In this document: positions 47,285-63,218 of the stretch, in pieces | Position numbering within the stretch: position 1 is the stretch's first letter | Layout: each line of letters opens with the position of its first letter | Assembly: GCA_005776725.1 (NCBI GenBank) | Contig: SXOO01000158.1 | Location: 2,769 to 66,768, forward strand | Source of the DNA: Pseudomonadota bacterium | GTDB taxonomy: Bacteria; Myxococcota_A; UBA9042; GCA-2863065 | DNA length: 64,000 bases | Direction of reading: 5' to 3' | Program-made: the position numbers and the translations under genes | The notes under the pieces: model-generated | Seen by the model: the letters and a program-made list of their open reading frames with translations, nothing else | Database searches by the model: none | Told to the model about the DNA's origin: nothing

Positions 47285-47932
47285 GTGATTTTCGGAAAGA
47301 GCACCCCCCGCAGGCAAGACAGCTTCCACACCGAGGCGCTCCCGCACCTCGACGCGCTGTTCAACGCCGCCACCTACCTCACCCGGGACACCCGAGAGGC
47401 CGAGGATCTCGTCCAGGAGACCTTCCTCAAGGCCTACCGATTCTGGAGCCGCTACAAGGCAGGGACCAACTGCAAGGCGTGGCTGTTCCGGATCCTGACC
47501 AACACCCACATCAACCGGAACCGGAACCGCCGGCGCGACCTCGTCTACCTCGACTCGGTAGACGGCGAAGGCGCCGCCGACGACGTGGGACTCGCAGATA
47601 CCTCGGGCTTCTATCGGGACCCCGAGGCCGACTACCTCTACGGTCTGGTCCACGACGACGTCCGTAACGCCGTCGAGGCGCTCCCCGAGGACTTCAGGGT
47701 CCCCGTGGTGCTCGTGGACCTCCAGGACTTCTCCTACAAGGAGGTGGCCGAGATCATGGAGTGTCCGATCGGCACTGTGATGAGTCGCCTCCACCGCGGG
47801 AGGAAGCTGCTTCAGAAGAAGCTGAGGGGCCGCGCGGTCGAGGCCGGGATCGTGGCCGATTCGCCCGAGACCGAACCCGTGGAGCCGGCGTCGCTCGACG
47901 CCTACAGACAGCGACGCTCGCGAAGGGACTGA
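47285..47932 (+). CDS. ECF-type RNA polymerase sigma-70 family factor
   Basis: Tail of ORF 46943..47932; GTG at 47285 proposed. Region 2: EDLVQETFLKAYRFWSRY...WLFRILTNTHINRNR. Region 4: LPEDFRVPVVLVDLQDFSYKEVAEIMECPIGTVMSRLHRGRKLL. Confidence 0.85.
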   Translation: MIFGKSTPRRQDSFHTEALPHLDALFNAATYLTRDTREAEDLVQETFLKAYRFWSRYKAGTNCKAWLFRILTNTHINRNRNRRRDLVYLDSVDGEGAADDVGLADTSGFYRDPEADYLYGLVHDDVRNAVEALPEDFRVPVVLVDLQDFSYKEVAEIMECPIGTVMSRLHRGRKLLQKKLRGRAVEAGIVADSPETEPVEPASLDAYRQRRSRRD

Positions 47933-47935
47933 GTC

Positions 47936-48736
47936 ATGGATTGTCAGAACCTACGCCGTTACCTCGATCTCTACATCGACGACGAGCTCGACCTTCGCGA
48001 CCGGGTCGACGCGGACGCGCACATCGAGGGGTGTCCCTCCTGCAAGGGCGTCGTCGGCCGCGAGCGGTCGTTCCGTCTCGCGCTTCGTGGTCAGCTCCGC
48101 CCGGTCAGCGCGCCCGACACGCTCCGGCGGGCGATCCTGGAGTCGGTCTCCGCGCCTGAGGTCGCGGCGCCGGATTGGCGTGCGGCCCTGCGGCGTGGGG
48201 GTGCCTGGTTCGCCCCGGCCGCGCTCGCCGCGGCGATCGCGCTCGTGGTCGTTTGGCCCTTCGAGCGCACGGCCGACGGCCAGGTGCAGGCCTCAGTGAT
48301 GCCCTCGAGCCCGCCGCCGCAACCGGTCGCGGCGCGCCTGCGACCCGGCATGGCCCTGGCCTCGCTCTCCAGCATGCCCGCCGACGTTGCGGGCGCCGCG
48401 TCGGACATCTCGCGCTACATGGCCGGCCGTGTGCCGTTCTTCGTGATGCCCTCCCTGGCCGAGCGCGACGGGCTGCGGCTGGTTGGCGCCCGCGAGGTCG
48501 TGGTCAACGACGCCCACGGCGCCATGCTGATCTACCGGCTGGGCGCGCAGCGGCTGTCGGTGGTGCAGACCGCGGCCACCGCGGACGACGAGAGCGCTCC
48601 CGAGCTGGTGGTCACGCGCGACGGTCGCGTCTCCACGGCCCGCTTCGTTCGCGATGGGGTGGTGCACACGGTGGTGAGCGAGCTCGACCCCGCCGCGCTC
48701 GCCCGCCTGGTCGAGTCCGCCACCCGCGTCGATTGA
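47936..48736 (+). CDS. zf-HC2 anti-sigma factor, single-pass membrane
   Basis: ORF 47936..48736, 3 nt after the sigma stop. MDCQNLRRYLDLYIDDEL...HIEGCPSCKG. TM: WFAPAALAAAIALVVVW. Confidence 0.8.
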   Translation: MDCQNLRRYLDLYIDDELDLRDRVDADAHIEGCPSCKGVVGRERSFRLALRGQLRPVSAPDTLRRAILESVSAPEVAAPDWRAALRRGGAWFAPAALAAAIALVVVWPFERTADGQVQASVMPSSPPPQPVAARLRPGMALASLSSMPADVAGAASDISRYMAGRVPFFVMPSLAERDGLRLVGAREVVVNDAHGAMLIYRLGAQRLSVVQTAATADDESAPELVVTRDGRVSTARFVRDGVVHTVVSELDPAALARLVESATRVD

Positions 48737-48766
48737 TGCCCCGGGCGTGATAGGGTCGGGGCGGTC

Positions 48767-51700
48767 ATGGTCGCCCTCGCCCTCACTGTCGCCTTGGTGC
48801 TGCCCGCGCAGGCCGAGCCGTGTGAAGGGCTCCCGGTGGGCCTGGTCGAGGTGGGCGCCTGCGAGTCACCCAGCAGGCCGTGTGAGCCAGACACCCGCGC
48901 CAGCCTCGTCTCTCTCACAGACCTCGCGATCGGCCAGACCTGGCTGCCCGCGAACGTGGCACGCGCGTCGCGGCGCCTGCTGGAGACCGGCTATTTCGCC
49001 CAGGTCACGCCGCGTTGTGCGCCCGACGCCACCGGTATCTGGGCTGAGGTGCGCTTCGACACCGTCCTCAACCACCGCATTCGCCGGGTCCGCTTCGTCG
49101 GCAACGCCAACCTCTACGACTCCGATCTGCTTCGGCGTCTGTTCCTGCGACCGGGGACCGTGTTCAACCCGGGGGACCCGCGCACCGAGGTCGAGCGGAC
49201 GCGTCAGGAGGCGCTGCTCGCCAGGCGGTACGCGAAGGAGGGCTTCGGCGCCGCGAAGGTGATGTTGTCTGCCGAGGTTCTGAGCCCCGAGGCCGTCGAC
49301 CTGGAGGTGATCATCGACGAGGGGCGGCGCCGAAAGGTTGGCGGCGTAGACGTCGTGGTCGACCGCGCCGTGGGCAGCCAGGCGCCGTTCGGGCCCGACA
49401 TTCGCTGCCCCGACTTCAGCGCCCGCATGATCCGCTCCGCCTCGAAGCTCGAGGCGAGCGAGCCGTACACGGAGCGCCGGCGCCGTGAGGCCGAGCGGAC
49501 GCTGGGCGTCTACCTCCGCAGCCGCGGCGTGCTGGACCCCAGCGTGACAATCACGGCGTCGGATGAGGCCGAGCGGACCAAGGTCTCCATCCGCTTCGAG
49601 CGTTGTGCGGTGCTCCGGGTGCTCGAGCGTGACGAGCCGCAGCCGGGTCGCTCGGGCACGGTCGAACGGACCGAGGCGGAGGTGCTCGACGCGCTCACCT
49701 TCGGAGAGTCCGGCAGCTTCGACCTCGAGGAGGCTGACCTCTCCCGCGCGGCGCTCGAGCTCTACTACCAGCGGCTCGGCTACCTGTTTGCGGACGTCGA
49801 GCTCGACTACCGCGTGGCGCCCGAGGGATCGCGAGCCCCAGGCGTCGTCGCCGTGATCACCTACGTCGTGAGCACGCGGTGGCCCAAGGAGATCCGGCGG
49901 ATCGACCTCGTGGGCGACCTGGGGCTGCCGCGGGAGACCCTCGAGGGCCTCATGAAGACCAAGGTCTACGACTTCTTCGGGACCGGCGGGTACCTGCTGG
50001 TCGAGCAGCTGTTCGCCGATCTGGCGGCGATCCAACGCCACCTCGTCGAGGCCGGGTACCACGAGGCGCGGTTCCCCGGGGCGCCGCCGGGCGCGCGCGA
50101 GCTGCTCGAGGTGCGCCAGTCGCTGCGCGGGACGGACGATGTCTACGACTACGTCTACGGAGACCTCCACTTTCGCGTGGTCTCCCCACCCGGGGAGAAC
50201 GTGCTGTACCTCGAGGTCCCCATCGCCGCCGGGCCGGCGTCGCGCGTTGGAACCGTGGACGTCACGCTCACGCCGGGGCTCGCGGGCCCCACCGTGGCCG
50301 AGCTGCGGACGGCGCTCCGCACGCTCCCCGGCGACCCGTTCTCCGCCGCGGGTGTGGCCGACGACGCCGCGGCGCTCGAGCTCATGTGGCAGGCCCTGGG
50401 ACACCACGAGACGCGAGTGGAGGTGCACTGCGTCGCGCGCGACGTGGCGCCCGCAGACGGTGCGGGGGCCGAGCGTCGTGGCGATGGCCCGCTGGCGGCG
50501 CGCTGTGGGCCTGACCGCCGTGAGCCCTGCGACCGCGCCCGCTGCGACTTCCGGACGGTGCGCGCCGGCGAGGTGGACCTGGCCTTCGACGTGGTGCCTG
50601 GGCCCCTGTTCTCGGTGGGTGAGGTGTTCGTCCTCGGCCTGGAGACTACGTCGGAGGCGCTCGTTCGCGAGGCGCTCCCGCGGCCGGGCGAGCCGCTGTC
50701 GCAGCCGGGGATCGACGCGGCCAACCGCGAGCTGCGGCTGCTCGGGGTGTTCGCCGACGTGCGGCTCGACCTCATCGGGCTCGACGAAGAGCCGCCCCGG
50801 GAGCGTCCGGCGGTGGCGGTGCACCTCCAGGAGGCGCCGTATCAGTTCTTCGAGCTACGCACCGGCATCCAGACGCTGGTCGCGCGGTCGGGTGACGAAG
50901 GGGTCCCGGAGCTGGGCGGCGCGGTCTCGTCCAGCCTGGGCGCCTCCGACGCGCTGGTGATGGGCGGTTCGGCCGCCGTGCCGCTGGAGATCCCGAACTT
51001 CCTGAACTTCTGGGGCGCGGCCTACCGCAACTCGAACCTGTTCGGTCGTGCGATCGAGCTGGAGGTCCCCATCCGGTACGGCCTCTCGATCCCCGAGTCG
51101 GCCACCGACCCGGACGCCTGGAGCGACGCGTTCTCCCGGCTCGTGGAGCTGCGGCCCACGCTCTCCGTGGCGCGGCTTCGCGGGACCGAGCTCGGGCTGC
51201 GCGTGAGCCCCTTCGTGCGCTACGACCGCTCCACCCGCGAGTTCGACGAGTTCGAGTCCGGAGTGGCCACGGCGCTCGACGCGGCGCTCACCGCTCGCCT
51301 GCGTAGCTCGACCACGCTCACCGTCAGCGGCATCGCCTCGGGCGACGCCTGTGACGTGGAGCCGTGCACCCTGCCGGAGATGCTCGGGCGGGAAGCGCCG
51401 CTGAGCCCCAAGGTGGACCTGGACGTGGGGCTCGCCTACGACCGGCTCGACAGCCCCATCCACCCGACGCAGGGCTGGGCCGTGGGCGGGCGGCTCCGCT
51501 ACGTGTTGTCCGAGGGCACCGACGAGCGCGGAGACACGGGCGACATCGGGAACTTCCTGCTCTACGAGCTGAACGCGCGCGGCGTGGTCAACGTGAGGAA
51601 GCGGCTGATCGTGGCCGCGTTCGCGCGCTTCGCCAGCGCCCTGTCGTTCGGCGGCGAAGAGAACCTCCCGAACCGCTACCGCTATCGGTTGGGCGGCATC

Positions 51701-52096
51701 AGCGGGCTGCGCGGCTTGGCCGACAACTCCGTGCGAACGTTCTCGGTCGACGGCACGCCGAACCTCGTTCAGGAGGGCGGCGACACGTTGCTCATGGGCA
51801 CCCTGGAGCTGCGGGTGCCCCTGCTCGAGCGGGGCCTCGGCGGCCTGTGGCTCGGGATGTTCGTGGACTTCGGCGGGCTCGCGGAGGACGTGATCGACTT
51901 CAACGAGGAGTCCTTCCGCCTCACCGCGGGTGTGGGGCTTCGTTACCTGATCTCCGGGATCGCGGTGCGCCTCGATGTGGGCTTCAACCCGCTGCGACGG
52001 TGCGAGATCGCCACGGGCGTCTCAGAGCCCACCTGCGACGCCAACGTCCTGGAGCCAGTGAGCCAGACCCACTTCGGGCTGCTCTACACGTTCTGA
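48767..52096 (+). CDS. BamA/Omp85-family outer-membrane protein, oversized paralogue (1109 aa)
   Basis: ORF 48767..52096. Signal peptide MVALALTVALVLPAQA. POTRA-like repeats: IRRVRFVGNANLYDSDLLRRLFLRPGTVFN, IRRIDLVGDLGLPRETLEGLM. Barrel motifs YRYRLGGISGLRGL and RLTAGVGLRY. C-terminal HFGLLYTF. Confidence 0.8.
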   Translation: MVALALTVALVLPAQAEPCEGLPVGLVEVGACESPSRPCEPDTRASLVSLTDLAIGQTWLPANVARASRRLLETGYFAQVTPRCAPDATGIWAEVRFDTVLNHRIRRVRFVGNANLYDSDLLRRLFLRPGTVFNPGDPRTEVERTRQEALLARRYAKEGFGAAKVMLSAEVLSPEAVDLEVIIDEGRRRKVGGVDVVVDRAVGSQAPFGPDIRCPDFSARMIRSASKLEASEPYTERRRREAERTLGVYLRSRGVLDPSVTITASDEAERTKVSIRFERCAVLRVLERDEPQPGRSGTVERTEAEVLDALTFGESGSFDLEEADLSRAALELYYQRLGYLFADVELDYRVAPEGSRAPGVVAVITYVVSTRWPKEIRRIDLVGDLGLPRETLEGLMKTKVYDFFGTGGYLLVEQLFADLAAIQRHLVEAGYHEARFPGAPPGARELLEVRQSLRGTDDVYDYVYGDLHFRVVSPPGENVLYLEVPIAAGPASRVGTVDVTLTPGLAGPTVAELRTALRTLPGDPFSAAGVADDAAALELMWQALGHHETRVEVHCVARDVAPADGAGAERRGDGPLAARCGPDRREPCDRARCDFRTVRAGEVDLAFDVVPGPLFSVGEVFVLGLETTSEALVREALPRPGEPLSQPGIDAANRELRLLGVFADVRLDLIGLDEEPPRERPAVAVHLQEAPYQFFELRTGIQTLVARSGDEGVPELGGAVSSSLGASDALVMGGSAAVPLEIPNFLNFWGAAYRNSNLFGRAIELEVPIRYGLSIPESATDPDAWSDAFSRLVELRPTLSVARLRGTELGLRVSPFVRYDRSTREFDEFESGVATALDAALTARLRSSTTLTVSGIASGDACDVEPCTLPEMLGREAPLSPKVDLDVGLAYDRLDSPIHPTQGWAVGGRLRYVLSEGTDERGDTGDIGNFLLYELNARGVVNVRKRLIVAAFARFASALSFGGEENLPNRYRYRLGGISGLRGLADNSVRTFSVDGTPNLVQEGGDTLLMGTLELRVPLLERGLGGLWLGMFVDFGGLAEDVIDFNEESFRLTAGVGLRYLISGIAVRLDVGFNPLRRCEIATGVSEPTCDANVLEPVSQTHFGLLYTF

Positions 52097-54178: not shown

Positions 54179-54300
54179 CTCTACACGTTCTGAGGTGAGC
54201 GCGGGCCGCGCGCCGGCGCGTGCACGGCCCAGCGCGGTCAGTCGCCCGGCGGGCACACCGACGCGCCCTCATCGGGGCTGACCACGGCGGTCGCTTCGCC
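54179..54300. repeat. direct repeat copy B (right boundary of insertion)
   Basis: See copy A. It covers the last ~21 codons of the esterase gene plus the downstream spacer, and a 15-nt copy of the bamA-like gene end (ctctacacgttctga). Confidence 0.9.
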
Positions 54301-55791
54301 CGACGTCCACCGGGCCAGGGCCTCGAACATCGTGGTGGGTGCTCCGCTGGCGCTGGCCGGGTCTTCGATTGTCACCTCGTAGACGTCCTCGTCGCTTCGG
54401 AGCGTCTCGTGCTTCGGGCACCACGGACCGAAGGCCCCCGGGGGCTCTGCGATCGTCTCCTCGGCGGTGCCGCCGGGCCCGCCGATTGCGGGCAGCGCCC
54501 TGAGCCCGGCCGCGACCATCTCGGCAAACAGGGCGAGATCGTAGGTGGCGCCGCCCGGCCCGGTGAGCACACCGGCCGCGAACGGATCCGAGACGAGTGA
54601 GTCGATGAGCCCCATGCGGACGAAGAACGGGGCTGTGATGTGGTTCTCCATCACGTGGGTCTCGTTCGAGCAGCGCCACGCGTCGCCGGCGTGCGCCTCG
54701 AGGCAGCTCTCGTCGCGCACGGCCCCCCAGTTCGAGGCTTCCTCGGCCGCGCCGGCTTCGAGGAAGGCGGCGCCGGTGCAGAGTCCGGCCTCATCGCAGA
54801 AGGGTGAGTTCTCGAAGCCAACCTCCTCGAGGTCGGGCCGATACGCAGAGTCGATGATGACTCGGTAGTCCGCGAGGTCGGCGTTGGAGGCTCGTAGGAG
54901 CCCCTCGACGTAGTCGGCGTTCTGGACCGTGCCAGCCCCGCCTGCCGACGCGCCAGCGAGGACCACCGCCGTGGCGTCGTCGAGGTCGGGCAGGGTGTTT
55001 GCGCCGGAACCGACGGTGCCCGCCTCGCGGCGGAGCGTGGCGAGGGTGGCCTCGAGGATTCGGCGCCCCAGGAAGTGCACCTTGTAGGTGACCGCGGCGT
55101 CCGTGTGCGGGTGGTGGCCTTCGAGCACGGCGTTGCGGTGGGTCCCGATCCAGTTGTCTGACGAGCAGTACTTCACGAAGACTTGGTTGTACTGACGGAA
55201 GGGGCTGGCGACGGACTTCGCGAAGCTCGCGGGGCGCGCGAGGATGCCCTTCCCATCGATCCCCACCTTCGGCGCCGGGGTGATCGACATCCCGAGCAGC
55301 GAGAACGCCGTCCCCACGTTGCACCAGCGGCCGGCGCAGCTGTCGCCGTTGTTACAGTTGCCCCCTCCCTGGAGCTGGATGATCCAGCGCGTGTCGTCGG
55401 CGCCCGCTGGTGCCGGGCGATAGTAGAAGACGGCCCCGGTGCCGTCGTTGCACAGCGCGTCCGGATAGACGGTGAGATCGAGGTCGTGCCTCGACAACAC
55501 CGAGTCGTCCTTCCCTTCGGCGAGCCCGCCCGCGCTGCCCTTCTTGCCGCAGTCGAGGACGTCTTGGATGAAGGGCACGGCGGCGTGCACGTCCGCGCCT
55601 GCGTCGCTGCCGGACGCATCTTCGGTGGGTGCGTCGGCGCCGTCTTCCTGGGCCTCCGCGCCGGCGTCGCCCTCGGGGACCTGGGCGTCTCTTGGCGCCG
55701 TCGACGCGTCGGGCACCGAAGTTGCCGCGGAACCCGCGCAGCTGGACGCGACGCCGAGGAGGAGCGGAACGAACAACAGCGATGGCCTCAT
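54238..55791 (-). CDS. pectin-acetylesterase/Notum-like alpha/beta hydrolase lipoprotein
   Basis: ORF 54238..55791. Lipobox LLGVASSC. LCNDGTGAVFYYRPA...WIIQLQGGGNCNNGDSCAGRW (GGGxC motif) and nucleophile context VVLAGASAGGAG. Confidence 0.65.
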   Translation of the reverse strand: MRPSLLFVPLLLGVASSCAGSAATSVPDASTAPRDAQVPEGDAGAEAQEDGADAPTEDASGSDAGADVHAAVPFIQDVLDCGKKGSAGGLAEGKDDSVLSRHDLDLTVYPDALCNDGTGAVFYYRPAPAGADDTRWIIQLQGGGNCNNGDSCAGRWCNVGTAFSLLGMSITPAPKVGIDGKGILARPASFAKSVASPFRQYNQVFVKYCSSDNWIGTHRNAVLEGHHPHTDAAVTYKVHFLGRRILEATLATLRREAGTVGSGANTLPDLDDATAVVLAGASAGGAGTVQNADYVEGLLRASNADLADYRVIIDSAYRPDLEEVGFENSPFCDEAGLCTGAAFLEAGAAEEASNWGAVRDESCLEAHAGDAWRCSNETHVMENHITAPFFVRMGLIDSLVSDPFAAGVLTGPGGATYDLALFAEMVAAGLRALPAIGGPGGTAEETIAEPPGAFGPWCPKHETLRSDEDVYEVTIEDPASASGAPTTMFEALARWTSGEATAVVSPDEGASVCPPGD

Positions 55792-56039: not shown

Positions 56040-59000
56040 ATGCCGTCTCGTTACGCCGTCCTGTTCGCCCTCGTGATGCCGCTCCGCGCCCTGGCCGACT
56101 GCTGCGCGCCCAACGCCAACCCAGGCTGCCCGGACAGCGGCGCCGTGCAGTCCTGCGTCTGCGCGAAGGACGCCTTCTGCTGCAGTACGGCGTGGGACGA
56201 GACGTGCATCGCCCTCGCCAAGAGCCAATGCAGCCTGACGTGCACGCTGCCCAAGGCCGAGACCTGCTGCCAGACGAACACCAATGCAGCGGGCTGCGCC
56301 GATCCGGTGGTGGAGAGCTGCGTCTGCGCGAGTCACCCTCCCTGCTGCACCAGCGCCTGGACGCCGGTCTGCATGCAGCTCGCGCGCAATACCTGCGGCG
56401 CCGACTGCCCCAAGGGCCAGTGTTGTCTGGGCAACATGGGCCTCGGCTGCGACGACCCGGCCGTCGAGAGCTGCGTGTGCGCTACGGACCCCTACTGCTG
56501 CACCACGAACTGGGACATCGCCTGCGCCAACGTGGCTCACGGGTGTGGCTGTGGCGGCTCGCAGGGCTGTTGTGAAGCCTCCTCCGCGTCCGGCTGCAGC
56601 GATGAAGACGTCCAGCTGTGTGTCTGTGAAGAGGATCCCGCTTGCTGCTCGGGCCAGTGGCACGCCGGCTGCGTCGCGCTCGCCGACCAGGCGTGTAACG
56701 CCCAGTGCCCGGCCGCGCTCGAGCCCTGCTGCAGCGCTCACGACTCCAAGTCGTGCGACGAGCCAGGCGTGGCCGCCGCGGTCTGTGCCAAGCGCCCCGA
56801 GTGCTGCTCGGGCCCGTGGACCCAGGAGTGCGCGGACCTCGCCGTGATCTCCGGCGACTGCCCGGCGCCGAAGGCCGACCCATGCACGCCGTCGCAGGTG
56901 GCTCGCGGCACCGTCGACCCCGAAGTCGAGGCGTGCGTGTGCGGGAAACGCGCCAGCTGCTGCACGCAGCGCTGGGACGCCGCCTGCGCCGTGCTCGCCA
57001 CGGCCTGCGGCGCTGTATGCACCACCGCCGGCTCGAACGACTGCTGCGTCGGCGACGTAGGAGCCACCGGCTGCGGGAGCTTCCCGGTCCAGGCCTGTGT
57101 CTGCGACGCGATTCCGAGCTGTTGCACCCTCGGCTGGGGTCTCACCTGCGCGTTCTACGCCGAGACGCACTGCGGCGTCCCGTGCCCGGCCACGAAGTGC
57201 TGCGAGGTGGATGGACGCCCCGGCGGCTGCGACGACGCCGAGATCACCCAGTGTGTCTGCGCCGCGGACCCCCACTGTTGCGAGGAGTGGGGGGGCGCCT
57301 GCGTGGCGCTCGCCGACGGCTGCGGCGCCGGGTGTTCGGGCCCGCCGCCGAAAGGGGCCTGCCTCGAGGCCCACTCGAGCAGCGGGTGCGCCACGGGCAC
57401 GATTGAAGGCTGTGTTTGTGCCGCGCTGCCCGAATGCTGTAGCGGCCCATGGGGCGCCGCCTGCGTGGATCGGGCGCAGGCCTGTACGCCGGACGTGTGC
57501 GGCGATGACCTCTGCACGCCTGGGGAGGGCTGCAGCGACTGCGCCGCCGACTGCGCCTGCGGGACCGGCGCGCAGTGTCTTTCAGGAGCGTGCGTGCCTC
57601 GCGACCTCTACTTCTTCGGCGGCATCCCCCTCCCTCAGGGCTGGGGTCAGCTCGGAGAGGTGGTGTTCGGCTGCGGCGCGCCCACCCTCCAGCGCTGCAC
57701 GGACCCTGCCTACCTGGATCGGCCGTGCGGGCGCGCGCTCCTCGTGGCGGCGCGCCAGGATCCGGACCATCCCTGCCACGCGTTCGCGCAGACGAACGGC
57801 AACGATGCCGCGGAGGCGATCACGGAGGCTCCGGAGCGCACGCTCCTGCCTAACCTTGCGTCCCGGCTGGTATCCCTCACTGCCCCGCCCCGGCCGCTGA
57901 CCGAGACGGCGGCGATCCCGGTTGCGCCAACGGAGCCTGCCCGGATACGGCGCGACACGCCCTGGGCGCAGGTCCCACCGAACTCGGAGGCCTTCGTCAA
58001 GGGGCTCTTCGAGGTCAACGGGGCAAGGGTCGCGTCGTGTGTCGAGGCGCTGTACGAGCGGCACTTCGACTATCACCGCTTCGAGGACGCCGCCGCCTCC
58101 GTCGAAGACGCCCGAGCGGTCTACCAGCTGGCCTACGGGCCCGTGGGCACGGCGTCCAGCATCGCTACGCGCACGATCAACGGCAGTGGGCTCCGGGCGC
58201 GCGATGGCTCCGTGTCCCGTCAGCTGGTGCTCGATCGCCGAGGGGCACGGAGCCCGTTCTTCGACATCCCGCCCACACTGTACGTGGCGCTTAGCCAGCG
58301 GCCCGATCTCAACCCGGCGGCGCCCTTCGCCAGCCTGGGCATCGGGACGACGCTGCCCCCCGGTTGGGCCGCGTGGCCGAAGCTGAGAGCCGGAATGCAG
58401 ACGGTCACCACGCGCTCATTCGTCTGGCACAGGGCGCGGAACGACGCGGCGATCGCAGCGGGTTACGACGACGTGCAGCTCCTGTCGTATGAACCCTTCA
58501 AGGAGCGGTTCCGCCAGCTCGTAGCGGCGGCTGAGGGCGCGCTTCAGCGCGCTGCGTTCCTTAACCGGCAGATCCCCAGCTTCCAGCCGCCCGTCGGGGT
58601 CGGGCCCGAGGAGCCCGAGCTCGAGGACCTGCCGGGTGCGCCCACAGCCCAGGATCTGGCCCGCGCCGACGCGCTGGCGGAGCGCCTGGTGGGGCGCGTC
58701 GTGGAGGCCCTCGTGGACGCGCGCGCACTCGGCTGCCTCGAGCCCGGGGTCACGCCATGCGACTGGTCGCCCGAGGACTTCGTGCGAGACGTTGCGTCCG
58801 CGGCGCTGCCGGGGCGCGAGCGCGATCTGCTGCGGTGCTACGAGGCCACGTCCACGTTCACGTTCTCGCAGCTGGCCAACTTCGCGCTCCCCACGCTGGG
58901 CACCAAGACCTACCCCGCGCGGGACTACCTCGCGAGCGCCTCGGCGTTGGACGATCTGACGGTCGAGAAGGAGGCCTGGGTGCGCGACGTCGTGGCGCAC

Positions 59001-59921
59001 GTGACGGGGCTTGGCCTCGCGGTGGTGGACGGCGTCCCGACCTTGGGCCAGGTCATGGATATGTTCCGGGACGCCCTGCCGGACCGGTGGTTCGGCTTCG
59101 ACACGGCGTTCCACTACGACTGGTCGCTGGTCGACGTGGCGGGCTCCGATCCGAACGAGCCGAGTGTGGACGTGCAGGCCTTCGCAGCCTTCGACGCCAC
59201 CGTTGTGGTGCTGGGCCGAACCGTGCCCCTGGCCGGGTTCCGGGCGGACTTCGGCGGGACCGTGGAACCGGCGGAGTCGTCCGTCCACGTCGAGCTTCTG
59301 GGAGCTACGCTCTACGCTGAGACCTTCAGTACGCGGGTGCCCCAGAGGTGGGACCTCGTGCGCACCCGGTACGAGGACAACGCCGAAATCCGCGCCGACG
59401 GCCCGATCTTCGTCATCGCCGGTGTCCCGATCCGTATCAGCGGAGGGATTGGGGGCTCGATCGCTTTCGACTTCGACATGACGGCGGCGGCACCGACCGC
59501 GGAGGTCCGCGCCGACCTTCGCACCACCTTCCGCCCATCCGCCGAGGTGTACGGTTTCCTTGAGGCGGCCGTGGACTACGCGATCGTCCGCGCGGGCATT
59601 CGCGGCGAGCTGGTGCTCATCGGCGCCGACATCCCGACCAACTTCTGGGCGCGCGTGAGCCTCGAGGACAACGCGTTCGTGGCGCGCGCCGCGGCCAGCT
59701 CAATCGCAACGCTGCGCAGCCTCAACGGCCGCTTCAAGTTGTTCGCCGAGATCAACCTCGGGATCACGAAGGAGCGCTACGAGAAGCGGATCGCGAGCTG
59801 GCGTGGCGTCGAGACCCGCGGGACGCTCTTCGCTACGGACTTCGAGGTGCCGCTCTTCGGGCTGATCGAGGCGTGTGCCATCCCCGGCGCGCTCGTCTGC
59901 GAGTCCAGCGATGCGCCGTAG
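56040..59921 (+). CDS. secreted 1293-aa protein: 9 x ten-Cys repeat module plus ~800-aa unassigned C-terminal region
   Basis: ORF 56040..59921. Signal peptide MPSRYAVLFALVMPLRALA/D. Repeat array at residues 20-487. CGDDLCTPGEGCSDCAADCACG motif. The remainder has no motif I recognise. Confidence 0.8.
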   Translation: MPSRYAVLFALVMPLRALADCCAPNANPGCPDSGAVQSCVCAKDAFCCSTAWDETCIALAKSQCSLTCTLPKAETCCQTNTNAAGCADPVVESCVCASHPPCCTSAWTPVCMQLARNTCGADCPKGQCCLGNMGLGCDDPAVESCVCATDPYCCTTNWDIACANVAHGCGCGGSQGCCEASSASGCSDEDVQLCVCEEDPACCSGQWHAGCVALADQACNAQCPAALEPCCSAHDSKSCDEPGVAAAVCAKRPECCSGPWTQECADLAVISGDCPAPKADPCTPSQVARGTVDPEVEACVCGKRASCCTQRWDAACAVLATACGAVCTTAGSNDCCVGDVGATGCGSFPVQACVCDAIPSCCTLGWGLTCAFYAETHCGVPCPATKCCEVDGRPGGCDDAEITQCVCAADPHCCEEWGGACVALADGCGAGCSGPPPKGACLEAHSSSGCATGTIEGCVCAALPECCSGPWGAACVDRAQACTPDVCGDDLCTPGEGCSDCAADCACGTGAQCLSGACVPRDLYFFGGIPLPQGWGQLGEVVFGCGAPTLQRCTDPAYLDRPCGRALLVAARQDPDHPCHAFAQTNGNDAAEAITEAPERTLLPNLASRLVSLTAPPRPLTETAAIPVAPTEPARIRRDTPWAQVPPNSEAFVKGLFEVNGARVASCVEALYERHFDYHRFEDAAASVEDARAVYQLAYGPVGTASSIATRTINGSGLRARDGSVSRQLVLDRRGARSPFFDIPPTLYVALSQRPDLNPAAPFASLGIGTTLPPGWAAWPKLRAGMQTVTTRSFVWHRARNDAAIAAGYDDVQLLSYEPFKERFRQLVAAAEGALQRAAFLNRQIPSFQPPVGVGPEEPELEDLPGAPTAQDLARADALAERLVGRVVEALVDARALGCLEPGVTPCDWSPEDFVRDVASAALPGRERDLLRCYEATSTFTFSQLANFALPTLGTKTYPARDYLASASALDDLTVEKEAWVRDVVAHVTGLGLAVVDGVPTLGQVMDMFRDALPDRWFGFDTAFHYDWSLVDVAGSDPNEPSVDVQAFAAFDATVVVLGRTVPLAGFRADFGGTVEPAESSVHVELLGATLYAETFSTRVPQRWDLVRTRYEDNAEIRADGPIFVIAGVPIRISGGIGGSIAFDFDMTAAAPTAEVRADLRTTFRPSAEVYGFLEAAVDYAIVRAGIRGELVLIGADIPTNFWARVSLEDNAFVARAAASSIATLRSLNGRFKLFAEINLGITKERYEKRIASWRGVETRGTLFATDFEVPLFGLIEACAIPGALVCESSDAP
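56097..57500 (+). repeat. coding tandem array, 9 copies of ~50-aa Cys-rich module (period ~150-160 nt)
   Basis: Each unit follows CC-x5-8-C-x7-8-CVC-x5-CC-x2-3-W-x3-C-x6-8-C-x1-4-C. DNA landmark tgYgtNtgYg recurs at about 56156, 56326, 56471, 56624, 56933, 57097, 57252 and 57411. Confidence 0.85.
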
Positions 59922-61629
59922 GCTCGGGCTGGCCGTCATCGTCGGCCTGGCGGTGGTGGGTGCGGCGTGGCGCGCCTGGGAGCTGCCGGTGGACGCACCC
60001 TCCGTCGCTGGCGATGCCTCCGCGGCGCGAGTCGGCGCAACGGCTCCACCGTCGCCTGGCCCGTTGGCCGCCAGCGTTCCGGCGTCGACCGACTGGCGGG
60101 TGCGCCTCGCCGTGGAGTCGTCGCTCCGCGTCGGCGAACAAGCGCTGGACGGTCGTGTCGTGTTGGACGCCGACCTGAGGCTCACGCAGGAAGGCCCGGG
60201 AGTTTTCCGCGCGGGGTTCTCCGCCGTGCGTGCCGCCAGTGCCGCCGTCATGGGCGTGCCCTTCAGCGGCCAACTCACCCACGCCGTGGCGCGCCTCACG
60301 CTGGGCTCGGACGGCGCCCTGGTCGGCCTCTCCGTCTCCAAGGGCGCCTCGCCGCTCTTCACGCACCTCATGGGCATGCTGGCGCGCGAGACCTTCCCGC
60401 CCACCGGCGGCGGCCGCACTCGTCAGGAGGTCAGCGCTGTGGGGGAGGCGCAAGCGGTCTATAGGTTCGGCCCCGCAGGTTTCACGCGCGCCCGACGGTA
60501 CAAGGCGCCGGGGACCGCCGCCGCAACGCTCACGCTGGCGTGCCCCCCGGGCGTCGACCCGGGAGCGCTCATCTGTGTGGAGCGCTTCCACGCCACCGAG
60601 CGCCTCGACGACGGGCGGGGCTTCTCGGCGAGCCTCGACGCCGAGCGCGTGCGCATCGGGACCACGGAGGTGGCGGTGATGTCGCTCGCCACTCCCACCG
60701 CCGTGGCACCGCCCGCTGCGCCCGCCACGCCGATGCCGGCGCTCACCCAGACTGCGCTGCTGGGGACGCTCGCCGCGCCCCCCGCCCCGGGGGCGGAGCG
60801 CGCCCGCTTTGCCTGGGACGCCACACGCACGCTCGCGCTGGATCCTGCGGCCGTGCGCGCGACTGAGGCGCAGCTACGCCGATCGCGAGGCCCCGATCGC
60901 GACCTGGGCCTCGACCTCCTCGCTCAAGCGGGCACGCCGGCAGCGCAGGCGGCGTTCGTTCGCCTCGTGGAGGACGCGGTCCACGAGGAACGCCCTGAGG
61001 CCGCGGCCGAGCTCCAGCGTTCGGTGCTGATCCCGGCGCCCACAGCGGAGACACGCGCGGCGCTCGATCGATGGTGGACGAACGGGCCCTCGCGCGACGT
61101 GCGCCTCGCCGCGGCGCACGCGCTAGGCGCGGCGTCGGCGGGCGACGAGGCGGTGGCGAAGCGGCTCGCTGACGCGGCGCGCGGGAGCGACCGCCCGGCC
61201 CTCTTGGGGGCGCTCGGCAACACCGACACGACCACCGCCGCCGCTGTCCTGCAAGCCGCACTGGCGGAGGGAGGGGAGGCCGCGGTCTCGGCTGCCCGGG
61301 GCCTCCGACACCACCCGGTGGCGCTGCCGGCTCTCGTGGCGCGACTGGCGGGCGAGCTTGCACTGGCGCGCGCCGCGCTCGATGCGCTCACCACGCTCGC
61401 CCGCTCGTCGCCCGAGGTGGTGCCGTCCGTGGCGGCGGCAGGGGTGGCTGGGGCGATCAACCCCAAGCTGGCGGGCCAGCTCCTAACGTTCTTTCAGCGA
61501 CATCTCGCCGGGCCAAACCGCCCGGCGCTCGTCGCGGCTGCAGCCGTGATCGCGGAGCTCCCCGGGGTGGACCCGGTGACGCGCGGCCGGATGCGTGACT
61601 TCGTCATCCTCGCCGGAGCCCCCTCATGA
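59911..61629 (+). CDS. membrane-anchored hypothetical protein with Ala-rich HEAT/ARM-like C-terminal repeats
   Basis: Frame of ORF 59875..61629; ATG at 59911 (11-nt overlap with the upstream stop). MRRRLGLAVIVGLAVVGAAW anchor, a beta-rich ~250-aa region, then helical repeats (DVRLAAAHALGAASAGDEAVAKRLADAARGSDRPALLGALGNT...). Confidence 0.65.
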   Translation: MRRRLGLAVIVGLAVVGAAWRAWELPVDAPSVAGDASAARVGATAPPSPGPLAASVPASTDWRVRLAVESSLRVGEQALDGRVVLDADLRLTQEGPGVFRAGFSAVRAASAAVMGVPFSGQLTHAVARLTLGSDGALVGLSVSKGASPLFTHLMGMLARETFPPTGGGRTRQEVSAVGEAQAVYRFGPAGFTRARRYKAPGTAAATLTLACPPGVDPGALICVERFHATERLDDGRGFSASLDAERVRIGTTEVAVMSLATPTAVAPPAAPATPMPALTQTALLGTLAAPPAPGAERARFAWDATRTLALDPAAVRATEAQLRRSRGPDRDLGLDLLAQAGTPAAQAAFVRLVEDAVHEERPEAAAELQRSVLIPAPTAETRAALDRWWTNGPSRDVRLAAAHALGAASAGDEAVAKRLADAARGSDRPALLGALGNTDTTTAAAVLQAALAEGGEAAVSAARGLRHHPVALPALVARLAGELALARAALDALTTLARSSPEVVPSVAAAGVAGAINPKLAGQLLTFFQRHLAGPNRPALVAAAAVIAELPGVDPVTRGRMRDFVILAGAPS

Positions 61630-63218
61630 TCAGACGACTGTTCTCCCTGTGCCTTGCCAGCGTGCTCGTGGCTTGCGGTGCTGCTTCGCCGGACGCGACG
61701 CCTGCAGACACCCTCACGTCCTCCGAAGAGGTGGGCCCCGCCGACTCCTCCTCCCCGGACGACGTGCTCGGGACCGAGGACGTGCTCGAGGCGGACGCGC
61801 CTCCTTCCGAGGACGCTGGGTCGGAAGACATCACGGCGTCGGACGACGTCCCGGCGCCGGAGGACGCGCCAGCCCCCGACGACGCGCCAGCCCCCGAGGA
61901 CGCGCCCGCTCCCGAGGACCTCGGGACGCTGGACGACGTCGCGGTGCCCGAGGATGGCGGAGCACTGGACGACGCCCCGTCGCCGGACGACGTCCCTGCG
62001 CCAGACGATGGGGGGGCGCTGGACGACGCCGCGTCGCCGGACGACGTCACGGCACCGGACGACGCGCCCCTACCTGAGGACGTGGGTACGCCGGACGACC
62101 TGACCGCACCGGACGACGTAGGCACTCCGGTGGGCGAGGCGGCCTGTAACGACGGCCTCGACGACGACGGGGACGACGCCATCGACTGCGCCGATTCGGA
62201 TTGTGCGGAGGTCAGCCCGTGCGACGCGCCCAGCACGTGCTGCACCGAGGGTGGGGCATGCGCCGAGCTCGCCGTGGCGGCGTGTGTTTGCGCGGAAGAC
62301 CCCGCGTGCTGCGCGGGCCCCTGGGACGCCTTCTGCGCCGCGCGGGCCGCCACCTGCGGCGGGCGCTGCGGCGCCACCGCGAGCTGCTGCGCGCCCGCGC
62401 CCACTTCGGGCTGCGCTGATGCGGACGTCACGAGCTGCGTGTGCGCGCTGCGGCCCCAGTGCTGCGAAGGCGCTTGGGACCTCGGTTGCACCGCAGCAGC
62501 GGCCGGGTGTGGCGCGTCGTGCCCCGGGGTTGTCCCCCCAGAGAACTGCACGAACGACGCCGACGACGACGGCGACGGGGCGATCGACTGCGAGGACGCC
62601 GGGTGCATCGCTCAGGCCGCCTGCGCGGCGCCCGCGCCGAACTGCTGCACCCCGCACCCGGGCGGAGGATGCTCCACGTCGGCAGCGCAGGAAGCCTGCG
62701 TCTGCGCGCTGGAACCTGCGTGTTGCCAGGAGTCGTGGGACCTGATCTGCGTGGCGAGAGCCCTCGACACGTGCGGCGCCACCTGCGCTCCTCCGGACGA
62801 GGACTGCACCGGAGGCGTGGACGAGGACCTCGACGGGCTCGCGGACTGCCTGGATCCCAGCTGCGCCGACGTGTTCCCGTGCTCGCTGCTGGCGCCGCCT
62901 TGCTGCGAGCCCAGCGTATTCCCGGGTTGCGCGCTCCCGGCCGTAGAAGCGTGCGTCTGCGCCGAGGCGCCAGAGTGCTGCACGGGCCCGTGGGGGCCGG
63001 ACTGCGCCGCCGCGGCAGGAACGTGCGGGATGCCCTGCCCAGTGGGGCCCGCCGACGGGCCGTGCTGCGCGGCAACGCTCGGGCTGCCCGGTTGCGGGGC
63101 CGCGCCAGCGGTGGAGGCGTGCGTCTGCGCGCTCGACAGCACGTGCTGCTCCATCGGCTGGGATGCCGCGTGCGTCGCCTTGAGCGTGGCGGCCAGCTGT
63201 CAGACGTGCGCTGACTGA
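61626..63218 (+). CDS. lipoprotein: acidic Pro/Asp spacer plus 5 x ten-Cys repeat module interleaved with Asp-rich Cys motifs
   Basis: ORF 61626..63218 (ATGA overlap with the upstream stop). Lipobox ASVLVAC. Residues ~36-170 are DDVPAPEDAPAPDDAPAPEDAPAPED... Repeats run from residue 205 to the C-terminus. Confidence 0.8.
   Translation: MIRRLFSLCLASVLVACGAASPDATPADTLTSSEEVGPADSSSPDDVLGTEDVLEADAPPSEDAGSEDITASDDVPAPEDAPAPDDAPAPEDAPAPEDLGTLDDVAVPEDGGALDDAPSPDDVPAPDDGGALDDAASPDDVTAPDDAPLPEDVGTPDDLTAPDDVGTPVGEAACNDGLDDDGDDAIDCADSDCAEVSPCDAPSTCCTEGGACAELAVAACVCAEDPACCAGPWDAFCAARAATCGGRCGATASCCAPAPTSGCADADVTSCVCALRPQCCEGAWDLGCTAAAAGCGASCPGVVPPENCTNDADDDGDGAIDCEDAGCIAQAACAAPAPNCCTPHPGGGCSTSAAQEACVCALEPACCQESWDLICVARALDTCGATCAPPDEDCTGGVDEDLDGLADCLDPSCADVFPCSLLAPPCCEPSVFPGCALPAVEACVCAEAPECCTGPWGPDCAAAAGTCGMPCPVGPADGPCCAATLGLPGCGAAPAVEACVCALDSTCCSIGWDAACVALSVAASCQTCAD
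61731..62135 (+). repeat. low-complexity coding repeat (Asp/Glu/Pro/Ala; 15-18-nt units such as gacgcgccagcccccgaS)
   Basis: gaggacgcgccagcccccgacgacgcgccagcccccgaggacgcgcccgctcccgaggac..., plus longer ~54-nt units (ggRgcRctggacgacgccScgtcgccggacgacgtc). Confidence 0.8.
62238..63215 (+). repeat. coding array, 5 copies of the same ten-Cys module as 56097-57500
   Basis: CCTEGGACAELAVAACVCAEDPACCAGPWDAFCAARAATCGGRC; CCAPAPTSGCADADVTSCVCALRPQCCEGAWDLGCTAAAAGCGASC; CCTPHPGGGCSTSAAQEACVCALEPACCQESWDLICVARALDTCGATC; CCEPSVFPGCALPAVEACVCAEAPECCTGPWGPDCAAAAGTCGMPC; CCAATLGLPGCGAAPAVEACVCALDSTCCSIGWDAACVALSVAASCQTC. Confidence 0.85.

Follow-up and report, generated by a model that had tools for sequence, protein, structure and literature searches.

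Large lipid transfer proteins (LLTPs), a superfamily that comprises vitellogenin/lipovitellin, microsomal triglyceride transfer protein (MTP), apoB and apolipophorin, combine an N-terminal beta-barrel and helical module (the LLT module) with a divergent C-terminal two-sheet lipid-binding domain (PMC6717300). In this study, we analysed a 64,000-nucleotide stretch of DNA (hereafter the window; contig SXOO01000158.1 of assembly GCA_005776725.1, positions 2,769 to 66,768, forward strand) from a bacterium placed by GTDB in Myxococcota_A, and focused on three of its open reading frames (ORFs), named p1, p2 and p3 (Table 1). The C-terminal part of p1 (aa 521-1293) is referred to as p1C. Judged from structure models, p2 and p1C appear jointly to reproduce the LLTP plan on two polypeptides. 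We propose that p1C and p2 form a bacterial, split, LLTP-like two-gene core that would carry lipid in a cavity, and that a ten-cysteine module repeated in p1 and p3 would tether or target this carrier. We estimate the probability of this whole statement, which leans on predicted folds, at about 0.55.

The likeness lies in the order and size of the parts. In the models, the beta region of p2 followed by about 17 helices corresponds in order and size to the LLT module, and the terminal sheet domain of p1C (~280 aa) is about the size of MTP's lipid-binding domain at the C-terminus. The locus differs from the LLTPs in being bacterial and in being divided between two genes in reverse order, with the sheet-bearing p1 first, whereas LLTPs are one polypeptide with the LLT module at the N-terminus. 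It also differs in the N-terminal hydrophobic anchor of p2, in an extra disulfide-bearing helical domain of ~450 aa in p1C, and in having no von Willebrand factor type D domain.

The p2 family was compared with Pfam and with the sequences of the Protein Data Bank (PDB). The results showed that 14 of 20 p2-family members matched PF01347 Vitellogenin_N (best E 3.8e-11, 42.7 bits), and that six of the ten members scanned individually scored above the 24-bit gathering score of this model. The match covered positions ~340-540 of the 590-position profile and mostly began about 100 residues ahead of the match to HEAT_2. The p2 family profile also matched lipovitellin (1lsh) at E 2.2e-6, with profile positions 357-522 aligned to chain residues 328-505, and MTP at E 2.2e-3, with positions 380-553 aligned to 355-535. 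Both matches were colinear, with an offset of about the length of the N-terminal anchor. A word-indexed search with p2 returned p2 itself only, and a genome scan confirmed no relative. Members of the p2 family are present in the cultured species Myxococcus eversor, M. qinghaiensis and Corallococcus terminator and in Hyalangium, where they are named 'HEAT repeat domain-containing protein'.

We then compared an AlphaFold2 (AF2) model of p2 with known structures using Foldseek. The model was built from an alignment of only 14 rows and had a predicted local distance difference test (pLDDT) score of 70.8 overall and above 90 in the solenoid. The top 11 PDB matches were all LLTPs (E 4.8e-9 to 5.7e-4), including MTP (4.8e-9), lipovitellin (6.6e-9), apoB100 (3.9e-8), honey-bee vitellogenin (1.8e-5) and the apoB beta-barrel fragment 9bd8 (5.7e-4). 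The alignments ranged from 372 columns (9bd8) to 731 and mostly spanned 581-644. Generic HEAT proteins ranked after the LLTPs, from E 8.6e-4 and over about 250 columns. We consider it very probable that p2 has the LLT-module fold. The protein begins with MRRRLGLAVIVGLAVVGAAW, which the model folds as a helix at residues 2-22. This helix is probably a signal anchor that is not cleaved and lies in the inner membrane, because the N-termini of the p2 family lack AXA-type cleavage sites.

The same approach was applied to p1C. Its AF2 model, built from a 67-row alignment (pLDDT 84, predicted TM-score 0.69), contained very long beta-hairpins, in which the strands are 20-24 residues in length. The five best Foldseek matches were all LLTPs, with MTP appearing three times beside lipovitellin and vitellogenin (E 3.3e-7 to 3.8e-3). 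MTP 6i7s was matched at E 3.3e-7 with a probability of 1.00, lipovitellin 1lsh at 1e-4, MTP 8eoj at 1.1e-4 and honey-bee vitellogenin at 3.8e-3. All non-LLTP folds, among them MACPF pores and porins, had E values of 5.7e-3 or more and probabilities below 0.5, against 0.94-1.0 for the LLTPs.

At the sequence level, p1 gave no Pfam match in a direct scan even at E<=10, an NCBIfam scan was likewise empty, and a search of PDB sequences gave no useful match. A word-indexed search with p1C retrieved p1C only. An exhaustive HMMER search seeded with the p1C of the window found at least 340 representatives of clusters at 50% identity with E<=1e-3, of which 189 had E<=1e-10 and 20 had E<=1e-30. The 149 representatives that were listed had E values from 1.9e-186 to 4.4e-13, and many covered nearly the full profile of ~760 positions. 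Members are mostly 700-900 aa long, most carry a signal peptide and about 18% a lipobox. Conserved features are a widely shared GC...CDWSP..F motif, C413, P646, G666 and G710; the family cysteines are at least 90% conserved, which fits an exported protein. Where members are named, the name is 'hypothetical protein'. None of the 62 members scanned had a significant Pfam match, and the most frequent match was to PF09172 Vit_open_b-sht, which was weak and found in three of the 62 (best E 0.007).

Several candidates were tried and rejected. A relation of p1C and p2 as paralogues had an hhalign probability of 0.7%. A precomputed tag, 'PF26780 DUF8252 (faint)', on p1 and on its relatives P0009 and P0015 was not reproduced by hmmscan at E<=10 and is therefore regarded as noise. 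The idea that p3 substitutes for a lost lipid anchor of p1C was dropped because merely ~18% of p1C members have a lipobox.

Gene order was examined in loci that included 63 metagenome loci retrieved with a DNA pattern for the CDWSP motif, and ORFs were classed by family hidden Markov models (HMMs). In all, the p1C-family gene was followed by a same-strand ORF of the p2 family at 25 non-redundant loci, the window not counted. This pairing held wherever at least ~800 bp of downstream sequence existed, with the sole exception of locus L157, where the match ended at profile position 677. The module was present on p1 in five of the 25 other paired loci (L123, L124, L126, L193 and L195) and absent from the remaining 20. 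No fused p1C and p2 protein was found among the 149 p1C representatives.

The order p1-p2-p3 recurred in one other genome, GCA_041687695.1 (L123), in which the p2 orthologue shared 31% identity over 578 aa (E 2e-20) and the p3 orthologue 48% identity with the same architecture and a 4-nt overlap with p2. The order p1-p2 recurred in a Myxococcota JABWCM01 metagenome-assembled genome (L124). Shared gene order at 31-48% protein identity shows that the adjacency is more than chance, and the data support one exported, co-inherited unit of three genes. Five p1C relatives carry modules, all N-terminal: P0005 (1426 aa, 11 modules), P0006 (1242 aa, 8), P0009 and P0015 (2 each) and P0008 (1). P0005 and P0006 are true orthologues of p1 and have signal peptides equivalent to that of p1. 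Other long p1C members bear Laminin_G_3, PKD, Lcl_C, Big_9 (Ig-like), DUF11 or a lactonase-type propeller. Besides the three orthologues, the genome GCA_041687695.1 encodes a paralogous p1C-p2 pair (L193:8001-12538), which carries two modules and lacks a p3.

An earlier, sequence-only reading of this locus had described three exported same-strand genes, coupled by overlaps of 11 nt and ATGA and built around an unrecognised ten-cysteine module, and had found no family for the rest. The ORF list and the sequence bear out the ORFs and the overlaps, the translations bear out the three N-terminal signals, and the recurrence of the genes in GCA_041687695.1 and in the JABWCM01 genome supplies the co-occurrence that it had proposed as a check. 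The module was not, however, what the unit is built around, as the conserved core is p1C plus p2 and 20 of the 25 other pairs are module-free. Direct scans of p1 and p2 agree that neither has a nameable family, but the p2 family matches Vitellogenin_N and the models of both proteins rank LLTPs first, so the long regions that had been considered unassignable, ~1,350 residues in p1C and p2, do have matches to LLTPs at the level of family and fold, a result that by the terms of that reading refutes its claim of no match.

Several results weigh against an LLTP-like core. Like p1, p2 had no direct match in Pfam, even at E<=10, or in NCBIfam, and its closest orthologue scored 23.3 bits for PF01347, slightly below the threshold. 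In the p2 family, matches to Pfam and to PDB sequences were confined to the HEAT-like helical part, the only part of the system in which sequence similarity to LLTPs was detectable, and the p1C family profile found no LLTP among PDB sequences, only influenza polymerase at chance level. The beta region of the p2 model was of low confidence (pLDDT 50-80, and below 50 at aa 196-276), and the ~450-aa N-terminal helical domain of p1C had no established counterpart in LLTPs. Global TM-scores against LLTP structures were 0.21-0.32 for p2 and 0.12-0.19 for p1C, and the root-mean-square deviations (rmsd) for p1C and p2 were 17-35 Å. With such low TM-scores and high rmsd, the LLTP likeness rests on the local 3Di alignment and ranking of Foldseek, in which the aligned residues are not visible, and not on rigid superposition. 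The intergenic spacing of p1C and p2 ranged from -11 to ~+180 nt, showing that adjacency is kept and translational coupling is not. An all-against-all BLAST of downstream ORFs found no conserved third gene across the p1C-p2 loci, and p3 is not family-wide.

The module was searched for with a regular expression and with an HMM built from its copies. Nine copies were found in p1 (aa 21-487) and five in p3 (aa 205-528), and none in p2, in agreement with the earlier count; the cysteine totals are 102, 64 and two, respectively. The module is ~47 aa long, with the consensus CCx5-8GCx6-8CVCAxDPxCCxxxWDxxCx6-7Cx2-4C; within the window the consensus reads CCx6-8GCx6-7CVCAxxPxCCxxxWDxxCxALAxxCGxxC. Ten cysteines are present in 11 of the 14 window copies, three degenerate copies of p1 having 8 or 9, and the window copies share 35-50% identity with the first copy. 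The lack of a known family was upheld. In Pfam-A, the module was unmatched in single copies (even at E<=10), in arrays and in nine module proteins of other genomes; in NCBIfam it was unmatched, including in RefSeq-genome proteins of Enhygromyxa salina, Paraliomyxa miuraensis and Sorangium; and a search of PDB sequences with the module profile yielded no match. A word-indexed search with the profile returned two short metagenome fragments.

Module loci were gathered from a species-representative genome collection with a hand-made degenerate DNA pattern for CVCAxxxxCCxxxWxxxC. At least 120 genome loci matched, nearly all from Myxococcota (Nannocystaceae and Polyangiaceae) and some from Planctomycetota. 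The module HMM identified at least 262 full copies in 98 ORFs of 92 loci, 239 of them outside the window. In these 239 copies the cysteine columns were at least 91% conserved, the W was invariant and ten cysteines were present in 181, figures to be read with the fact that each locus was retrieved through at least one copy that fits CVCA....CC...W...C. The module formed the C-terminal end of 47 of the 98 ORFs. Its partners elsewhere were FG-GAP, beta-helix, TSP3, BNR and dockerin domains and CGDGxC spacers, and Myxococcota commonly have p3-type lipoproteins, in which a lipobox and a low-complexity linker are followed by a module array up to the C-terminus. Relatives of p1C or p2 were absent from all module-bearing genome loci among the 120 matches listed. 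By its sequence, the module is a genuine, uncatalogued domain, predicted to be extracellular; as it is widespread and occurs at loci without p1C or p2, it is regarded as accessory in this operon. An even number of ten cysteines at fixed spacing in exported proteins fits disulfides, presumably five per module.

Variants of the module were also observed. Planctomycetota-type proteins at three loci (L120, L094 and L026) contain a shorter, eight-cysteine form, ...C..CC..C.xDPFCCxxxWDxxC..., beside full modules and have dockerin-like C-termini. In large proteins of Myxococcota and Planctomycetota, a CGDGxCxxxExCxxCxxDC motif alternates with the module. The nearest described elements are the acidic cysteine-rich repeats of Myxococcota (NF033662 acid_disulf_rpt, TIGR02232 myxo_disulf_rpt and Pfam DUF4215), which are likewise short, acidic, disulfide-rich and extracellular. 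NF033662 repeats interleave with the module in p3, and CGDGxC-type repeats do so in other proteins. The module differs in its own pattern, CC..GC..CVC..CC...W...C..C..C, and is matched by none of the three models.

We propose the following mechanism. p2 would be fixed by its signal anchor to the inner membrane, on the periplasmic side, and would supply the LLT module, that is, a beta-barrel-like region and then a 17-helix solenoid. p1C would supply a disulfide-stabilised helical domain and a long-stranded sheet domain of ~280 aa, like the lipid-binding sheets of MTP and lipovitellin. The two exported proteins would assemble outside the cytoplasm and form a cavity to bind or shuttle cargo of hydrophobic nature, for which phospholipid, neutral lipid, sterol and other lipophilic metabolites are candidates. 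The nine N-terminal modules of p1 and the downstream lipoprotein p3, which would show five more on a long acidic stalk, appear to be lineage-specific gains. The arrays of p1 and p3 probably tether or target the carrier, either by mutual binding or via a ligand that both recognise in the envelope or at the surface. Such a role would have a parallel in other lineages, where p1C is fused to Laminin-G, PKD, Ig-like and DUF11 domains. For a function of p1C and p2 in lipid transfer, our estimate falls just short of an even chance. A bolder statement, in which Myxococcota have true homologues of the eukaryotic LLTPs in the form of an ancient and widespread pair, with the eukaryotic form possibly derived by fusion and the module as a new domain family, is tentative, and we place the odds somewhat against it.

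Other explanations assign the working role to different parts of the operon. The sequence-only reading had suggested a disulfide-knotted adhesin or matrix system. In a surface system of this kind, the arrays of p1 and p3 would be the working parts and p1C and p2 scaffolds or assembly factors with no role in lipid handling. The company of the module in secreted multidomain proteins (FG-GAP, beta-helix, TSP3, BNR, dockerin), its frequent C-terminal position, the common p3-like lipoproteins and the adhesion-type domains fused to p1C relatives all speak for this idea. However, the unit that is conserved consists of p1C and p2, mostly without the module; p1C and p2 are missing from the module loci among the matches listed; and fold searches of both core proteins place LLTPs first. 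We consider this explanation unlikely as a whole; adhesion or matrix formation survives only as a possible role of the module arrays. Its companion proposal, a thiol-rich system that binds or handles metal, draws on cysteine content alone (102 in p1, 64 in p3) and is barely credible. The proteins are exported, the even ten cysteines at fixed spacing in 11 of 14 window copies and 181 of 239 copies elsewhere fit disulfides, p2 has two cysteines, and both His- or Met-rich motifs and metal-related neighbours are absent.

It is also conceivable that the resemblance to LLTPs is coincidental, with p2 an ordinary HEAT scaffold and p1C an unrelated beta-rich protein. The p2-family sequence matches to Vitellogenin_N, lipovitellin and MTP lie in the helical part only, designed HEAT proteins match far more strongly (E 1e-55), the TM-scores are low, and the NCBI label names merely a HEAT repeat domain. 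What makes coincidence distinctly unlikely is that the LLTP matches of the p2 model reach E 4.8e-9, where the best HEAT design has 8.6e-4, over alignments that mostly span 581-731 columns against ~250 and include the apoB beta-barrel fragment; that the matches at sequence level run colinear with the place of the helical domain in LLTPs; and that the neighbour p1C, modelled separately, likewise ranks LLTPs first. Myxococcota are predators, and p1C might instead be secreted as a beta-pore-forming toxin of MACPF/CDC type, targeted by the module array and accompanied by p2 as a chaperone or immunity partner. The 20-24-residue strands of its hairpins would suit such a toxin, and the second tier of its Foldseek matches contains MAC, perforin-2 and pleurotolysin (E 6e-3 to 0.2). 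These pore matches nevertheless have probabilities of 0.05-0.44 over ~200-260 columns, LLTPs score two to four orders of magnitude better, MACPF was matched in Pfam by none of the 62 p1C members, and the obligate partner p2 resembles an LLT module, which leaves a toxin very improbable.

Among other known proteins, the closest to p2 are HEAT proteins (PF13646 HEAT_2, alphaRep designs and PBS-lyase HEAT), since HEAT_2 and alphaRep are strongly matched by the last ~110 residues of the solenoid in the p2 family. Unlike p2, they lack a ~250-aa beta region, a signal anchor and an obligate p1C neighbour. The Mla/MCE, Lpt, AsmA/TamB/YhdP bridge-like and Lol systems, by which hydrophobic molecules cross or leave the Gram-negative envelope, may offer a functional analogy to the LLTP-like core. 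Their folds are unrelated, and the operon has no ABC or MCE component and no Pfam match of these kinds.

The coordinates of the locus are given in Table 1. The window has a GC content of 70%, and the metagenome contig ERZ27257034 k141_27769 of ENA (206.8 kb) is identical to it, with p1 as its protein P0001. The ATG of p1 is preceded by GGAGG 5 nt upstream, and promoter and terminator scans of the locus gave no signal exceeding the shuffled background. The N-terminus of p1, MPSRYAVLFALVMPLRALA/DCC, is a predicted cleavable signal peptide. Between the last module and p1C lies a spacer, CGDDLCTPGEGCSDCAADC..., at 57498-57599 (p1 aa 487-520), which had no match in Pfam or NCBIfam; its motif is the CGDGxCxxxExCxxCxxDC type that alternates with the module in the large proteins noted above.

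Table 1. Coordinates of the p1-p2-p3 locus in the window; the last column gives descriptions and the basis of each assignment.
Feature	Position	Strand	Description and basis
p1	56040-59921	+	1293 aa, ATG start; signal peptide, nine 10-Cys modules, CGDDxC spacer, p1C domain
p1 signal peptide	56040-56096	+	aa 1-19, ...RALA/DCC; read from translation
p1 array of nine modules	56100-57500	+	p1 aa 21-487; alignment, nine HMM domains
p1C	57600-59918	+	p1 aa 521-1293, 773 aa; fold predicted to resemble LLTPs
p1C helical subdomain, disulfide-bearing	~57687-59009	+	p1C aa 30-470; AF2 model
p1C all-beta subdomain, long strands	~59034-59852	+	p1C aa 479-751; AF2 model
11-nt overlap of p1 and p2	59911-59921	+	p1 TAG stop (ends 59921), p2 ATG (59911); read from sequence
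p2	59911-61629	+	572 aa from ATG; an in-frame GTG at 59875 gives 584 aa
p2 N-terminal hydrophobic helix	59914-59976	+	AF2 model
p2 beta region with one internal helix	~60085-60654	+	aa 59-248; AF2 model
p2 17-helix HEAT-like solenoid	~60748-61617	+	aa 280-569; AF2 model
ATGA overlap of p2 and p3	61626-61629	+	p2 stop, p3 start; read from sequence
p3	61626-63218	+	530 aa, ATG start; lipoprotein
18-nt tandem repeat in p3	61822-62064	+	13.5 copies, 68% match; encodes acidic P-[ED]-D-[AV] linker; Tandem Repeats Finder
p3 first acidic double-disulfide repeat (NF033662)	62136-62222	+	aa 171-199; NCBIfam
p3 other two NF033662-type repeats	~62538-62624, ~62796-62882	+	by eye from translation
p3 five modules	62238-62369, 62385-62522, 62643-62786, 62901-63038, 63063-63209 (span 62238-63209)	+	HMM, alignment

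The third protein, p3, begins with MIRRLFSLCLASVLVAC, in which a lipobox (LVAC, with Cys17 after a hydrophobic stretch) was read by eye from the sequence; its orthologue in L123 has the lipobox LILAAC. The lipobox is followed by an acidic repetitive linker and by three acidic double-disulfide repeats interleaved with the five modules to the C-terminus. The sole library match of p3 was to NF033662 (55.4 bits, cutoff 41), in three stretches that cover ~90 of 530 residues. In the L123 orthologue, an analogous stalk is rich in PEDV. At L195:9477-11624, a two-module p1C-p2 pair is followed by a lipoprotein in which the linker is acidic and PD-rich and apparent Ig-like repeats take the place of modules. 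The comparison hints at a recurrent stalked lipoprotein partner with a variable tip domain.

The genes around the operon were also recorded. At 54238-55791 on the minus strand, separated from p1 by a 248-bp gap, is a divergent gene for a putative lipoprotein of 517 aa with a Pfam match to PAE (pectin acetylesterase family); this PAE-type gene is not found beside the p1 orthologues in L123 or L124. Further upstream (~47285-52096, plus strand), genes for an ECF-type (extracytoplasmic function) sigma factor (Sigma70_r2/r4), a zf-HC2 anti-sigma factor and a 1109-aa Omp85/POTRA protein stand in a row, which may be a separate envelope module. Downstream, from 63298 to the end of the window on the minus strand, a gene of the Endonuclease_NS family is convergent on p3. 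Past it, the parent contig carries T2SSF, an acyltransferase, an 848-aa protein without a family and TruD.

To our knowledge, the other members of the LLTP family are animal proteins. We found no report of bacterial or prokaryotic homologues of LLTPs, vitellogenin or MTP in the full-text literature that was searched, the coverage of which was incomplete. Some recognition at the database level probably exists, because several p2 relatives already pass the Pfam thresholds for Vitellogenin_N. The analysis also defines two unannotated families, p1C (at least 340 clusters) and the ten-cysteine module (at least 262 copies), both of which could become database models.

If the pair is truly homologous to the eukaryotic LLTPs, the single-chain LLTP of eukaryotes could have arisen when a p2-like and a p1C-like gene fused, and lipoprotein-type carriers would join sterol synthesis among the lipid traits by which Myxococcota are linked to eukaryotes. 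A bacterial LLTP would offer a simple system for the study of how LLTP cavities are loaded with lipid and release it. Since relatives are present in cultured Myxococcus, Corallococcus and Hyalangium, the idea is directly testable. A bacterial LLTP would be a candidate for carrying the unusual lipids of myxobacteria, sterols among them, and would provide a concrete hypothesis for the origin of the eukaryotic family.

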